The notes beneath the pieces were generated by a model. The model worked only from the letters and a program-made list of their open reading frames with translations. It had not been told where the DNA came from and did not search any database. From sequence record OZ335963.1: a stretch of 64,000 nucleotides of DNA; one strand, 5' to 3'. The position numbers and the translations under genes were made by a program. Below, one piece after another: positions 42-39,642 of the stretch. How positions within the stretch are numbered: the stretch's first letter is position 1; every line of letters starts with the position of its first letter. The stretch comes from a phage.

Positions 42-725
42 AAAATCGTGGGTAGAATCAGCTTCAAGAGCTACTACATAATTCGCATGTTCACCTTCAA
101 ATTTAGCAGCACCTTGTTTACCTTTTGCCCAGAGCAGAAGTTTATAATTTCCTGGTTGCATTTTCATATTTGCCATATTGATAATGAAATTAAATGTATT
201 TTCACCATCATAATCACCAAGAGTCAAAGAATATTTAACACGGGTCAAAGCAGAATCTTCTACTTTGTTAAAACCGTTAATTACGATTTTACCTTCTTTT
301 ACTGTGATAGCAATTGTATCAATCTGCAGACCACGAGATACACGCAACAGCTGTTGAAGGTCTTCAGCTTTAATTTCGGTAACAACAGATGCTACCGGGA
401 ATGGAATTGGTTTATTAGGAGCAACTACTGTACTTGGATCGGCTGCTGGCCAAAAAATTGTTGAACGAGCATCAGCAATTTTAATATTTCCATCTTCTGA
501 CTGGGAAATTTCTGCATCGTCATTAACTAGGGACAGAATACCGAGAAAACCGTTCAAATCGTAAATTGCTACATCAAAATCAATGGTGTCAGAAATATTT
601 GCTTCCGCATAAGTTGTACCATTAACTGCGCGAGTCATAATAAATTGACCGGATTTAAGCATAATACCAGAGTTAATAGTAGCGAAATTTTTAAGCAGAG
701 CAGTAGTATCTTTAGACAGTTTCAT
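39..725 (-). CDS. 45: DNA polymerase sliding clamp gp45
   Basis: 228 aa, MKLSKDTTALLKNFATINSGIMLKSGQFIM... matches T4 gp45 in sequence and length as recalled. Confidence 0.95.
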   Translation of the reverse strand: MKLSKDTTALLKNFATINSGIMLKSGQFIMTRAVNGTTYAEANISDTIDFDVAIYDLNGFLGILSLVNDDAEISQSEDGNIKIADARSTIFWPAADPSTVVAPNKPIPFPVASVVTEIKAEDLQQLLRVSRGLQIDTIAITVKEGKIVINGFNKVEDSALTRVKYSLTLGDYDGENTFNFIINMANMKMQPGNYKLLLWAKGKQGAAKFEGEHANYVVALEADSTHDF

Positions 726-10284: not shown

Positions 10285-10755
10285 TTAATCATGTTTCCAC
10301 ACCCCATCGGTATTTGACCAAAGTCGCTGATTATCTGATCCTCGCCACAGCTTTTTGGTCGGAAGATTTTTCTCATACTTCCCATCAATAATAACATCAA
10401 CATATTTAAGCATTTCTAGTTGTTTAATATCTTCAAACTTATATCCTGTCCACAACCAAATGCTTTTATTTGGATAAAGATTTTTTACTGTTTGAACAAT
10501 GCAATGAATAACATCTCGGTTATCAGGATAAAGAGGGTCACCTCCAGTTATAGTTAATCCTTCTATATAATCATTATTCAAACATTCAATTAATTGTTCT
10601 AGTGTTTCACCAGTGAATGGAACGCCATTTCTAGCGTTCCATGTTGATTTATTATAACATCCTTCACATTTATGCAAACAACCTGTAACGAAAAGAACGA
10701 CCCTGCATCCAGGGCCATTCACAAAATCGCAAGGATAAAATCTATCATAATTCAT
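10285..10755 (-). CDS. nrdG: Anaerobic ribonucleotide reductase activating protein (radical SAM)
   Basis: 156 aa; CLHKCEGC (CX3CX2C) radical-SAM cluster motif; directly downstream of nrdD; T4 NrdG is 156 aa. Confidence 0.9.
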   Translation of the reverse strand: MNYDRFYPCDFVNGPGCRVVLFVTGCLHKCEGCYNKSTWNARNGVPFTGETLEQLIECLNNDYIEGLTITGGDPLYPDNRDVIHCIVQTVKNLYPNKSIWLWTGYKFEDIKQLEMLKYVDVIIDGKYEKNLPTKKLWRGSDNQRLWSNTDGVWKHD

Positions 10756-12569
10756 TGGTGTTTAATCCTATGCATGATTTCTTTATTTTTACCGAGATTA
10801 AATCCGCGTTCGTTCGGATTTCCCAAATAACCACAAGTTCTTCTTATTGTGTTCATCTTTTTAGGATCAGTTTCTCCACAAATAGAACAAACAAACCCGT
10901 TTTCAGTAGGAGTCATTTCATGTGTACTTCCGCATGTAAAACATTTATCTACTGGCATATTAACACCAAAATAATCTAAATGTTGTGCAGCATAATCCCA
11001 TACAGCCTCAAGACCTTTTAGGTTATTTTTCATATCAGGAAGTTCAACATAAGAAATGTGACCACCTGTCGCAATGAAATGATATGGTGCTTCTCGAGAA
11101 ATCTTTTCAAACGGAGTAATATTTTCTTCTACTGAAACGTGGAAACTATTAGTGTACCATCCTTTATCAGTAACATCTTTTACACTTCCATATTTCTCAG
11201 TATCAAGTTTACAGAAGCGATAGCACAGGTTTTCAGCAGGTGTAGAATACAAACTAAAAGCAAAACCAGTTCTTTCAGTCCACTGCTTAAGACGAGCATT
11301 CATTTTAGTCAAAATTTCCTGTCCAATATCACGACCGACAAGAATATTCAATTCGTGAATACCAATGTATCCTAGGGACACTGAACTTCTACCGTTTTTA
11401 AATAACTCAATTATGTCGTCATCAGGTTTAAGACGAACCCCGAATGCACCTTCTTGGTAAAGAATAGGAGCAACAGTCGCTTTAACTCCTTTTAAGGAAC
11501 TAATTCTACACATCAAAGCTTCAAAACACAAATCCATTCGTTCATTGAACAATTCGGCAAATTTCTGTTCATTGAATTGTGTTCCAATATAAGAATCTAA
11601 CGCAATACGAGGAAGATTCAGTGTTACAACACCAAGATTATTACGTCCATCAAGAATTTCATTACCAGTCGAATCTTTCCATACGCTTAAGAAACTACGG
11701 CAACCCATTGGAGAAACAGGAATAGATGAACCGGTGATAGCTTTATTGTTCTTAGCTGAAATAATATCAGGATACATTCTTTTGCTTGCACACTCTAAAG
11801 CAAGCTGCTTAATATCATAGTTCGGATCATCTTTATAAAGATTAACACCTTCTTCAACGAACATAACAAGTTTAGGGAAAATAGGAGTTATCCCATCGCG
11901 ACCAAGGCCTTTAATACGATTTTTCAGAATTGCTTTCTGAATCATTCGTTCAGTCCAGTCAGTTCCAGTACCAAATGTAATTGTTACAAAAGGCGTTTGT
12001 CCGTTTGAACTAAAGAGAGTATTTACTTCATATTCATAAGCTTGGAATGCATCGTATACGTCTTTTTCTGTTTTAGATTGGGCATAATTCAATGCATCGG
12101 CGATTTGCCATTTTTCTGCATCCTCAATATGTTTTGCATAGGTGCGTTTAACATAAGGAGAAAGTACTTTATCTACATTCGCAAAAGTCGTTCCGCCATA
12201 TTGATGAGAAGCAACCTGCGCAGTAATTTGTGCCATAATTGCAGTAGCAACGCCGATTGATTTAGGAGTTTCAATCTGCGCATTACCGAGCTTAAATCCG
12301 TTCTCAAGCATTCCTTTTAAATCTACTAAACAGCAATTAGTAAATGGAAGAGCAGGGGAATAATCAATATCGTGGAAATGGATAATTCCGCTTTCATGCG
12401 CTTTCATAATAAAAGACGGGACCATATTTTTGGCAATGTGTTTAGACACAATACCAGCCATAAGGTCCCGTTGAGTTGGAAAAACACGAGAATCTTTATT
12501 AGCATTCTCGTTTAAAAGGTCTTTATTAGTTTTATGAATCAATCCTTCAATTTCTTTTTCAATTGTCAT
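10752..12569 (-). CDS. nrdD: Anaerobic ribonucleoside-triphosphate reductase NrdD, uninterrupted
   Basis: 605 aa continuous ORF with C-terminal glycyl-radical region and Cys-rich zinc site; same length as spliced T4 NrdD. Confidence 0.92.
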   Translation of the reverse strand: MTIEKEIEGLIHKTNKDLLNENANKDSRVFPTQRDLMAGIVSKHIAKNMVPSFIMKAHESGIIHFHDIDYSPALPFTNCCLVDLKGMLENGFKLGNAQIETPKSIGVATAIMAQITAQVASHQYGGTTFANVDKVLSPYVKRTYAKHIEDAEKWQIADALNYAQSKTEKDVYDAFQAYEYEVNTLFSSNGQTPFVTITFGTGTDWTERMIQKAILKNRIKGLGRDGITPIFPKLVMFVEEGVNLYKDDPNYDIKQLALECASKRMYPDIISAKNNKAITGSSIPVSPMGCRSFLSVWKDSTGNEILDGRNNLGVVTLNLPRIALDSYIGTQFNEQKFAELFNERMDLCFEALMCRISSLKGVKATVAPILYQEGAFGVRLKPDDDIIELFKNGRSSVSLGYIGIHELNILVGRDIGQEILTKMNARLKQWTERTGFAFSLYSTPAENLCYRFCKLDTEKYGSVKDVTDKGWYTNSFHVSVEENITPFEKISREAPYHFIATGGHISYVELPDMKNNLKGLEAVWDYAAQHLDYFGVNMPVDKCFTCGSTHEMTPTENGFVCSICGETDPKKMNTIRRTCGYLGNPNERGFNLGKNKEIMHRIKHQ

Positions 12570-30257: not shown

Positions 30258-30523
30258 TAGTATTTTTCCTCTGGTTGAAACACAGCACGACAAGCCCACA
30301 TACTGGCTTCTTTGAGTTTCGTTTTAGCAATAGTTAACTGATCGAGGCTTTCAGCATAATTCTTCGTGAATTCACAGTCTTCACAATTATCTAGTGCTTC
30401 CCAGAATTCATCATATAAAGCATCAAAGATAAGTCCTAAACGAACTTCAGCATCTTTGATAGCATTCACTTTACTGATTTTATCGTCAGTATGTGGCTTA
30501 TAACCTTTAATGTCTTCAATCAT
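30257..30523 (-). CDS. Hypothetical protein, 88 aa; by map order this may be the T4 vs.4 (Acb2) position
   Basis: Position only (second ORF past regB toward ipII); sequence not verifiable from memory. Confidence 0.3.
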
Positions 30524-30737
30524 ATTTTACTTCCTCACCTGTTCCCAAATCATATTCAACTAAACGAATAGGTTCATGAATGCCATATCCTTGAACAGAA
30601 ATTTCTGTCGTAGGATAAATTCCATTAATATCACCCATGGTCCACGCTTCATTAAATTGCTGTTCGCCTGAATTACTAAACCACTCGGCGAAAGCATTTA
30701 ACACATCTTTAGAACCTTCAATAATTATCTTTGCCAT
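30516..30737 (-). CDS. Hypothetical protein, 73 aa
   Basis: ORF between the 88-aa ORF and the GrcA-like gene. Confidence 0.45.
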   Translation of the reverse strand: MAKIIIEGSKDVLNAFAEWFSNSGEQQFNEAWTMGDINGIYPTTEISVQGYGIHEPIRLVEYDLGTGEEVKYD

Positions 30738-31099
30738 TACAAGCTCTCAGTAAAGGTACGAGCGATAACGTCGCGCTGCTGTTCCGGAGTCAGAGAGTTA
30801 AAGCGAACTGCATAACCGGATACACGGATGGTCAGCTGCGGATATTTTTCCGGATGCTTAACTGCATCTTCCAGAGTTTCACGACGCAGAACGTTAACGT
30901 TCAGGTGTTGACCACCTTCAATTTTAACTGTAGGCTGTGGTTCAATTTCAATTTCACGGGTGTGCAAACCGTAGAAAATTTCTGGGTCTACAAAAGAGTC
31001 CTCTTTAAAGGTTTTAGAAACAATAATTCGTGCTTGAATACCATCTTCAAAATAAATAGTACCTTTATGTGTGCCTTCAAGAATTTGATATGCTTTCAT
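30737..31099 (-). CDS. Autonomous glycyl-radical cofactor (GrcA/YfiD-like), about 120 aa
   Basis: C-terminal ...[60 protein letters not shown] carries the RVSGY glycyl-radical motif; ATG at 31099 with GAGAGG RBS. Confidence 0.8.
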
Positions 31100-31107
31100 A
31101 TAACCTC

Positions 31108-31434
31108 TCAATTAGAAAATAAATTTATCCAAGATTGCTCTTTAATTAAAAATGGCTCAGAATCATATGCCATTAAACTTTGGGTGATTAGTCCTTTAAA
31201 AGGTCCATCAATAAATTCCATGGTAAAATATGGAATTTTATTCATTAATCTTGCATTAGGAGCAGTGCACAAAACTCTGCATCCTTTGAATACGCCTTTT
31301 TGTAATTTGTACTGCTTAGGATAAAATTCGCTCAAGACGTTGTTATTTGCCAAAATTTCAAAATGATTCACCAACTTATTTTTAATAGTTTTTGGCGAAA
31401 AATAAAGATATTCGAAAAGTTGCGTATCTGTCAT
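31108..31434 (-). CDS. Hypothetical protein, about 108 aa
   Basis: Track ORF 31108-31488 has a 5' extension; probable start [10 protein letters not shown]. Confidence 0.45.
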
Positions 31435-38810: not shown

Positions 38811-38886
38811 TGGTCGAGGCAGTAGGGATCGAACCTACGACCTAGGACTTAGAAGGTCCTTGCTCTTCCTTCTGAGCTATGCCTCG
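38811..38886 (-). tRNA. tRNA-Arg (anticodon UCU)
   Basis: Hand-folded cloverleaf; anticodon loop CTTCTAA; T-loop GGTTCGATC; CCA encoded. Confidence 0.85.
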
Positions 38887-38890
38887 TATT

Positions 38891-38965
38891 TGGCGGACAT
38901 GCATGGATTCGAACCATGGACCAATTGATTAACAGTCAACTGCTCTACCACTGAGCTACACATCC
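38891..38965 (-). tRNA. tRNA-Asn (anticodon GUU)
   Basis: Hand-folded cloverleaf GGATGTG...; anticodon loop CTGTTAA; T-loop GGTTCGAATCC; CCA encoded. Confidence 0.7.
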
Positions 38966-38969
38966 AAAT

Positions 38970-39056
38970 TGGTGGGGAGTGATGGAGTCGAACCACCCGA
39001 GTCGCAATGACAATGGATTTACAGTCCACACCGCTACCTCTACGGGATAACTCCCC
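38970..39056 (-). tRNA. tRNA-Tyr (anticodon GUA), long variable arm
   Basis: Anticodon loop CTGTAAA; long variable arm as in bacterial tRNA-Tyr; CCA encoded; D-arm is atypical. Confidence 0.55.
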
Positions 39057-39069
39057 TTAATTCTTAATT

Positions 39070-39144
39070 TGGTGGCCCTGGGTGGAATTGAACCACCATC
39101 TGGCGATTATGAGTCGCTTGCTTGAACCTTCCAGCTACAGGGCC
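39070..39144 (-). tRNA. tRNA-Ile (anticodon CAU; Met/Ile not distinguishable from sequence)
   Basis: Anticodon loop CTCATAA; Ile assigned by analogy with T4 tRNA-Ile. Confidence 0.75.
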
Positions 39145-39145
39145 T

Positions 39146-39221
39146 TGGTGCTGATTGACGGAATCGAACCGCCGACATCCTCATTACAAGTGAGGTGCTC
39201 TACCTACTGAGCTAAATCAGC
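39146..39221 (-). tRNA. tRNA-Thr (anticodon UGU)
   Basis: Cloverleaf GCTGATT...; anticodon loop CTTGTAA; CCA encoded. Confidence 0.85.
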
Positions 39222-39226
39222 AAAAC

Positions 39227-39316
39227 TGGCGGAGGCGATAGGATTTGAACCTATGAGTCGCCGGAGCGACTGCCGGTTTTCAAGACCGGTGCATTAAACC
39301 ACTCTGCCACGCCTCC
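39227..39316 (-). tRNA. tRNA-Ser (anticodon UGA), long variable arm
   Basis: Cloverleaf GGAGGCG...; anticodon loop CTTGAAA; CCA encoded. Confidence 0.85.
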
Positions 39317-39318
39317 AG

Positions 39319-39392
39319 TCTCCGCGGCAGGATTTGAACCTGCGACATTCTGCTCCCAAAGCAGACGCTCTACCAAACTGAGCTACACGGAG
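39319..39392 (-). tRNA. tRNA-Pro (anticodon UGG), CCA not encoded
   Basis: Cloverleaf CTCCGTG...; anticodon loop TTTGGGA; abuts tRNA-Ser as in the T4 Pro-Ser dimeric precursor. Confidence 0.85.
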
Positions 39393-39402
39393 TAAATTAA
39401 AT

Positions 39403-39476
<74 letters not shown>

Positions 39477-39481
39477 AAATT

Positions 39482-39568
39482 TGGTGCGAGAAGTGGGACT
39501 CGAACCCACAAGGAAATCATTCCGCAGCATTTTAAGTGCTGTGCCTTTACCAATTTGACCATTCTCGC
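39482..39568 (-). tRNA. tRNA-Leu (anticodon UAA), long variable arm
   Basis: Cloverleaf GCGAGAA...; anticodon loop CTTAAAA. Confidence 0.85.
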
Positions 39569-39569
39569 G

Positions 39570-39642
39570 CTGGGAATAAAGGACTCGAACCTTTGCATCT
39601 AGCAGTCAAAGTGCTATGCCTTACCAACTTGGCTAATTCCCA
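39570..39642 (-). tRNA. tRNA-Gln (anticodon UUG), CCA not encoded
   Basis: Cloverleaf TGGGAAT...; anticodon loop CTTTGAC; first tRNA of the cluster. Confidence 0.85.

Follow-up and report, generated by a model that had tools for sequence, protein, structure and literature searches.

Has a T4-type phage recently captured a piece of a host enzyme, and what purpose would such a piece serve? The question is raised by an open reading frame on the minus strand of record OZ335963.1 (30737..31099; all coordinates refer to the window, i.e., the whole stretch of 64,000 nucleotides that was analysed). A preliminary description of this frame regarded the C-terminal half of its product as nearly the same as Escherichia coli GrcA and the N-terminal half as different. 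It proposed the recent capture of a host domain, which might rescue oxygen-damaged NrdD or the pyruvate formate-lyase (PFL) of the host.

Gene identity and genomic context

The window represents a T4-type (Tequatrovirus) genome. In the list of open reading frames of OZ335963.1, the frame encodes 120 amino acids followed by a TAA stop; it is read from an ATG at 31099 to the stop codon at 30737-30739. This ATG was preferred over an upstream TTG at 31111 because of the position of a Shine-Dalgarno-like GAGAGG (31104-31109, minus strand), which lies 4 nt 5' of the ATG. The length of 120 residues agrees with the annotation of phage genomes in GenBank. The gene shares the following nucleotide identities with its counterparts: 100% (phage KNP1) and 97.8% (T4). 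The latter is annotated as 'autonomous glycyl radical cofactor' or vs.6. As in T4, JS09, and PYps14T, the gene is placed between vs.7 (upstream) and vs.5 (downstream; 30516..30737, minus strand) in the e-denV-vs-regB-tk early region, and its neighbours match PHROG 2049 and PHROG 1986. The ATG of vs.5 (30735-30737) overlaps the stop codon of vs.6 as TAATG. A scan for promoters and terminators around vs.6 returned no more matches than were obtained in shuffled sequences. Full-length vs.6 was found in 745 phage records. Judged by identity and position, the frame at 30737..31099 is the already characterised T4-type gene vs.6, the product of which is known as Y06I.

The sole Pfam domain of the protein is Gly_radical (residues 61-101, profile positions 66-106 of 106, E = 2.6e-18), while PHROG 1209 matches residues 1-120 (E = 1.4e-62). 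The best relatives of solved structure are the NMR structure of GrcA (6owr; E = 8e-42) and residues 697-759 of PFL (1h16). Alignments to both place the predicted radical glycine at Gly95 in the motif RVSGY (codon at 30815..30817, minus strand), the equivalent of G102 in GrcA and G734 in PflB. The best-scoring NCBIfam model is TIGR04365 (spare_glycyl), which aligns to residues 20-120 with 153.4 bits, under the cut-off of 170, while E. coli GrcA reaches 233.9. This shortfall is explained by the divergence of the phage-type N-terminal half. The protein displays the features of the GrcA type, namely, a small (class of about 14 kDa) stand-alone glycyl-radical domain with a PFL-type RVSGY.

Annotation of this family is uneven. 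PHROG 1209 is labelled 'unknown function' despite biochemistry published in 2001, and this label could be corrected. The names used in GenBank include 'hypothetical protein', 'pyruvate formate-lyase', 'glycerol dehydratase radical', and even 'tail sheath monomer'.

Two halves of different origin

BLASTP alignment of vs.6 with E. coli GrcA gave 74/100 identical residues overall. Residues 61-120 (EGGQH...TESL) were identical to residues 68-127 of GrcA at 60/60 positions. The peptide quoted in the preliminary description is thus exact, and the C-terminus is in no way diverged from that of the host protein. The identity extends to DNA. Namely, nucleotides 179-363 of the gene (30737-30921) are 98.9% identical to grcA in 5426/5426 complete E. 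coli genomes. The longest exact run comprises 175 nt (30747..30921, minus strand; nt 200-374 of E. coli grcA) and includes the glycyl-radical domain from E61. It begins abruptly two bases before codon E61, with bases 30920-30921 at the end of codon 60 already inside the run. The only two mismatches in the C-terminal half are located in the last three codons. Beyond the stop codon of vs.6 the sequence is unrelated to the host locus, as are the flanks. The C-terminal half shares 178/180 nucleotides with E. coli and 167/180 with the nearest genus other than Escherichia in our set. The GC content rises within the gene from 0.33 in the N-terminal to 0.49 in the C-terminal half. A nucleotide comparison with host grcA had been proposed for dating the transfer; besides the exact run, it gave a dS of 0.046 between the C-terminal half and E. 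coli, for this phage as well as for T4. Read from these alignments, the C-terminal half of vs.6 is recently host-derived.

The phage-type half (30922..31099, minus strand) covers the first 60 codons, except for the final two bases of codon 60. This AT-rich half is a distant homologue of the N-terminal region of GrcA: about 14/39 residues (~36%) are identical between residues 22-60 of vs.6 and residues 28-67 of GrcA in the BLASTP alignment. Its nucleotide identities are ~50% to E. coli, 87-97% to T4 and JS09, and 73% to Klebsiella phages. Between T4 and JS09, a dN of 0.055 at a dS of 0.49 indicates that this half is under purifying selection among phages. Since the GrcA profile aligns to residues 20-120, the N-terminal half is a diverged homologue and not a different module. 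The earlier view of this half as 'different' holds with regard to its low identity, but it is still a GrcA homologue. In identity matrices, the N-terminal halves group by phage lineage (72-99% among phages and 47-54% to hosts), whereas the C-terminal halves group by host. The whole of vs.6 would then be an old grcA homologue whose C-terminal half was overwritten, which speaks against capture onto an unrelated N-terminus. Of the proposed recent capture of a host domain, the recent host origin of the C-terminal DNA stands; the joining of a foreign domain to an unrelated N-terminus does not.

The last three codons and the stop codon form a variable tail (30737..30746, minus strand). When 13 phage copies were compared with E. 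coli codon by codon, host, ancestral-phage, and derived states were found intermingled in the last four codons, stop included. The mosaic, seen in the phage of the window, T4, PYps14T, JS09, and L095-L100, varies between close Tequatroviruses. The same tail doubles as the translation-initiation region of vs.5.

A second, probably independent replacement in Klebsiella phages

Within vs.6 of the Jiaodaviruses KP179 and KPV15, the GC content steps from 0.35 to 0.54-0.56. A pattern scan yielded 32 loci from metagenome contigs, most of these loci being bacterial (GrcA N-terminus, upstream GC 0.54); one of these 32 loci was 99.9% identical to ung-grcA-srmB of K. pneumoniae and represents a donor contig. 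L180 is a 166-kb phage contig, and the IMG/VR locus L121 is Klebsiella phage KPV15. The C-terminal halves of E. coli and K. pneumoniae grcA differ at 21 sites, which were used as a diagnostic set. The phage of the window, T4, and JS09 agree with E. coli at 21/21 and with K. pneumoniae at 0/21 of these sites; the respective numbers for KPV15 and L180 are 1/21 and 19/21. Over nt 1-157 of the C-terminal half, L180 is identical to K. pneumoniae grcA (157/157). The 3' junction lies at about nt 158 in Klebsiella phages, where it is followed by a shared phage-type tail, and at about nt 170-175 in T4-like phages. These different junctions suggest that the E. coli and the Klebsiella patches were acquired in separate events.

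Near-identical Jiaodaviruses differ in the C-terminal patch alone. L180 and KP179 are 98.9% identical in the N-terminal half and 93.0% in the C-terminal half, while KP179 and PKO111 display a higher dS in the C-terminal half (0.65) than in the N-terminal half (0.24). This points to more than one replacement event inside this genus. Donors of the C-terminal halves of KP179 and PKO111 were not found among the sequences compared; the best match was K. pneumoniae (146/157 and 143/157), with Klebsiella sp. MAGs, Raoultella, and a Klebsiella 'plasmid' being poorer donors. The use of K. aerogenes NCTC10006 grcA (L208) in this comparison was limited by a 1-nt frameshift in the gene. A 1-nt frameshift is also present in KPV15 (L121, about 420..430); the intact metagenomic relative L180 suggests that the latter is a sequencing error.

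The two versions are easily told apart in searches of phage records. With the E. coli C-terminal half as the query, 377 records were at least 99% identical, 266 were 95-99% identical, and 107, from Klebsiella phages, were 80-90% identical. The corresponding numbers for the K. pneumoniae query were 2, 112, and 527, the last group being E. coli phages. Together with the diagnostic sites and junctions, these counts indicate that the C-terminal half of vs.6 underwent homologous replacement from host to phage at least twice, independently, as far as can be deduced from sequence comparison.

Age and distribution of the family

Homologues of vs.6 were detected by tblastn in 1589 phage records. They occur in several genera of the Straboviridae, in T5-like Demerecviridae, and in Vibrio phages, and throughout consist of a variable N-terminal half and a C-terminal half starting at EGGQH. 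In most of these genera, identity between the C-terminal DNA and enterobacterial grcA amounts to only 63-84%, including cases in which the proteins agree at 60/60 positions; comparison with any of 81 host grcA genes gave 114-164/180 nucleotides and exact runs of at most 53 nt. The E. coli-type patch is carried by Tequatrovirus and Mosigvirus only. Other phages of E. coli are free of it and have more diverged C-terminal halves: 124/180 (Krischvirus JSE) and 124-132/180 (T5-like phages). This distribution argues for an ancient origin of vs.6 as a full-length grcA homologue in T4-like and T5-like phages.

The copy in Klebsiella phage 150040 (Slopekvirus; L085) illustrates how protein and DNA may disagree. 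Its C-terminal half is identical to E. coli GrcA at 60/60 residues and at only 149/180 nucleotides, with dN = 0 and a saturated dS of about 1.9. Protein identity alone is, therefore, no proof of recent transfer, and this copy serves as a caution in that respect.

A third host-specific patch was not revealed among 80 IMG/VR loci compared with 80 host species, a set without Aeromonas, Vibrio, Morganella, and others. Within one genus, the Slopekvirus-like IMG/VR loci L111 and L112 and the copy L085 carry either the Klebsiella-type ETLLDAVEH or the E. coli-type ETLEDAVKH, and both residue types sit on phage-type codons. Either host patches, short or of older date, or convergent adaptation to the host may account for this. 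The 19-kb IMG/VR contig L123 contains a grcA-like gene in DNA of uniform GC content (0.47) sharing 164/180 nucleotides with grcA of Yersinia artesiana. Either bacterial DNA or a copy carried by a prophage was probably classified as viral in this case.

Direction, timing, and proposed mechanism of the replacement

The patch has the GC content and the codon choice of the host inside phage genes of 33-36% GC, while host genes are uniform in composition and diverge with host taxonomy (the C-terminal half of E. coli grcA shares 178/180 nucleotides with Escherichia sp. and 167/180 with Citrobacter). Both features argue for transfer from host to phage. T4 and JS09 are identical at 578/776 positions in the flanks and the N-terminal half and at 168/170 positions in the patch (Fisher p = 6e-17), so that the patch is younger than the split between Tequatrovirus and Mosigvirus. 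It spans exactly the stretch over which phage and host genes were already alignable. This confinement and the lack of a patch in the more diverged E. coli phages both fit homology-dependent replacement. Taken together, replacement of this segment of vs.6 by host DNA appears to be recurrent.

Could the identity instead be the remnant of one ancient capture of grcA, preserved with no recent transfer by extreme conservation of the C-terminal half, synonymous sites included? The protein encoded by this half is indeed almost invariant across phage and bacterial homologues, and grcA varies little over the 5426 E. coli genomes. Slopekvirus, however, encodes the same 60 amino acids with saturated synonymous divergence, for which reason selection on synonymous sites was rejected (dS about 1.9 at dN 0). 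The Klebsiella phages follow K. pneumoniae at 19/21 diagnostic sites, which are mostly synonymous, and T4 and JS09 show 2 differences in 170 nt of the patch at an N-terminal dS of 0.49. A single ancient capture is, therefore, extremely improbable. Nor do we give any credence to host contamination or to a chimeric assembly of this phage genome. The unusual GC step is all that would recommend it; the same junctions recur in 745 full-length phage records, submitted by many laboratories, and in IMG/VR contigs, on which grounds an assembly chimera was rejected, the frame is read through without a break, and the phage genes on either side keep the T4 order.

A different matter is the number of transfers. 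A few discrete events, one from E. coli and one or two from Klebsiella, may have been spread by recombination between phages with no ongoing exchange with the host. The internal variants of JS09 (T81, A135) match no allele among 5426 E. coli genomes, which agrees with such a scenario and precludes direct allele tracking of ongoing conversion in E. coli phages. The E. coli patch is retained in Tequatroviruses whose isolation host was Yersinia or Salmonella; replacement is, therefore, not fast. The 266 phage records that are just 95-99% identical to the E. coli C-terminal half show drift after acquisition. Yet, the patch contains 0-2 internal differences across two genera in surroundings that are about 25% diverged. 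The contrast between the halves of L180 and KP179 (98.9% versus 93%) and the excess of C-terminal over N-terminal dS between KP179 and PKO111 also weigh against a few discrete events, the latter implying more than one event in one genus. We consider this scenario possible, but less likely than not. The boldest reading is that a strictly lytic, host-DNA-degrading phage keeps the working half of vs.6 matched to its current host by repeated homologous marker rescue, with the phage copy evolving in concert with the host gene. Our belief in it and our doubts are about evenly balanced.

Marker rescue from homologous plasmid inserts is established for T4. The 5' junction of the patch lies at the edge of alignable homology, with less than about 10 nt of shared sequence upstream, which makes a simple double crossover awkward. 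We infer a route by strand assimilation: a single-stranded fragment of degraded host DNA would be assimilated by the recombination system of the phage, and its non-homologous tails would then be trimmed. Once a first patch was in place, repeats would be greatly facilitated by the near-perfect homology, and concerted evolution with host grcA could follow. A description of nucleotide-level, host-specific patches in vs.6 was not found in the searchable literature, the coverage of which is incomplete.

Predicted function

In PMC8683613 and PMC13450708, two spare-part proteins are named as validated, namely, YfiD/GrcA of E. coli and Y06I of T4. As related there from Wagner et al. 2001, the activating enzyme of PFL installs a glycyl radical on YfiD and Y06I, and oxygen-cleaved PFL is restored; this work (BBRC 285:456) was done in vitro, on the T4 protein. 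The radical sites are G102 in GrcA and G734 in PflB, and G102 passes the radical to C419 of PflB (PMC12338860). The protein encoded in the window is 119/120 identical to T4 Y06I and 49/61 (80%) identical to the C-terminus of PflB (residues 700-760). The rescue of host PFL suggested in the preliminary description is, therefore, not new, but corresponds to the biochemistry reported for a nearly identical protein.

By analogy, host PflA would put the radical on Gly95 of the vs.6 protein. The latter would dock on a PflB molecule whose C-terminal radical domain had been removed by oxygen and would supply the missing domain, so that pyruvate could still be split to acetyl-CoA and formate. These steps are those reported for T4 Y06I, one residue away from the protein of this phage. 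An own copy of the gene may keep up the anaerobic or microaerobic supply of acetyl-CoA and formate after host shut-off. The literature searched contained no in-vivo phenotype of a vs.6 mutant. In summary, vs.6 is very probably a spare part for PFL, an ancient grcA homologue the C-terminal half of which has been recurrently replaced from the host by homologous recombination.

The other suggested role, that of a spare glycyl-radical domain for phage NrdD activated by NrdG, is highly improbable. Both nrdD (10752..12569, minus strand) and nrdG (10285..10755, minus strand) are present in the window, as had been stated, but they are ~18 kb away from vs.6 and not adjacent to it. NrdD and vs.6 both match Pfam Gly_radical, and PMC8683613 speculates that other glycyl-radical enzymes may have spare parts, too. 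In Aeromonas phage 65.2, the homologue (L093, 224..586) is located directly between nrdG and a thioredoxin gene, which is the sole hint from gene context that ties the vs.6 family to ribonucleotide reduction. However, BLASTP of vs.6 against NrdD of the window gave an E of 2.6, and the radical regions were not aligned. The C-terminus of NrdD reads ...CFTCG...CSICG...RRTCGYLG, with a Cys-rich segment ahead of the radical site RRTCGYLG; this segment is missing from vs.6, the C-terminal half of which is devoid of cysteine. Sequence comparison thus lends the rescue of NrdD no support: vs.6 resembles the C-terminus of PflB at 80% and that of GrcA, in its own C-terminal half, at 100% identity, and this half follows host grcA and nothing encoded by the phage.

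The nrdD gene of the window is one uninterrupted open reading frame of 605 codons' worth of protein (605 aa), and Rfam searches identified no group I intron in the 64 kb. The nrdD gene of T4 carries an intron, which this strain appears to lack. A cluster of 10 tRNA genes is located at 38811..39642 on the minus strand (Arg, Asn, Tyr, Met with a CAT anticodon, Thr, Ser, Pro, Gly, Leu, and Gln). These are two more than the eight tRNA genes of T4.

Comparison with known systems

Both the gene and its mechanism of action are already known, and the gene is annotated accordingly in hundreds of phage genomes. They belong to textbook-level glycyl-radical enzymology, to which the preliminary finding as worded adds nothing new. 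The patch is of greater interest, being a clean, datable, and tractable case of host-to-phage replacement inside one frame of a virulent phage. Two versions specific to their hosts exist and hundreds of genomes have been sequenced, and the patch may merit a short study. The gene also offers a natural assay of how often T-even phages rescue sequence from a degraded chromosome.

The closest known system is T4 Y06I (vs.6) itself, with the same gene, the same neighbours (vs.7 and vs.5), and the same host-identical C-terminal half. The differences are T47 here versus A47 in T4, 8 nucleotide substitutions, and another combination of host-type and phage-type states over the last three codons. E. coli GrcA is likewise a small stand-alone glycyl-radical domain with the RVSGY glycine, shares 175 nt with vs.6, and is reported to have the same activity on O2-cleaved PFL as T4 Y06I. 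Unlike GrcA, vs.6 has 60 N-terminal residues of ~36% identity and is 7 residues shorter; it is located in an AT-rich run of phage early genes, whereas grcA lies between ung and eamB. The C-terminal domain of PflB (1h16, 697-759), with 49/61 identical residues, is the part that the spare part replaces. In contrast to PflB, vs.6 has neither the catalytic barrel nor Cys418/Cys419 and would act only in trans on damaged PflB.

With regard to the replacement, a parallel is psbA of cyanophages, in which intragenic recombination between host and phage has reportedly occurred. There, too, a metabolic gene of a T4-like lytic phage is said to combine host-type patches and a GC discontinuity in one reading frame. 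The patch in vs.6 differs in that it is virtually identical to the host allele of today (no differences in 157-175 nt), stops sharply where homology ends, and exists in two host-specific versions (E. coli and K. pneumoniae) in sister genera.
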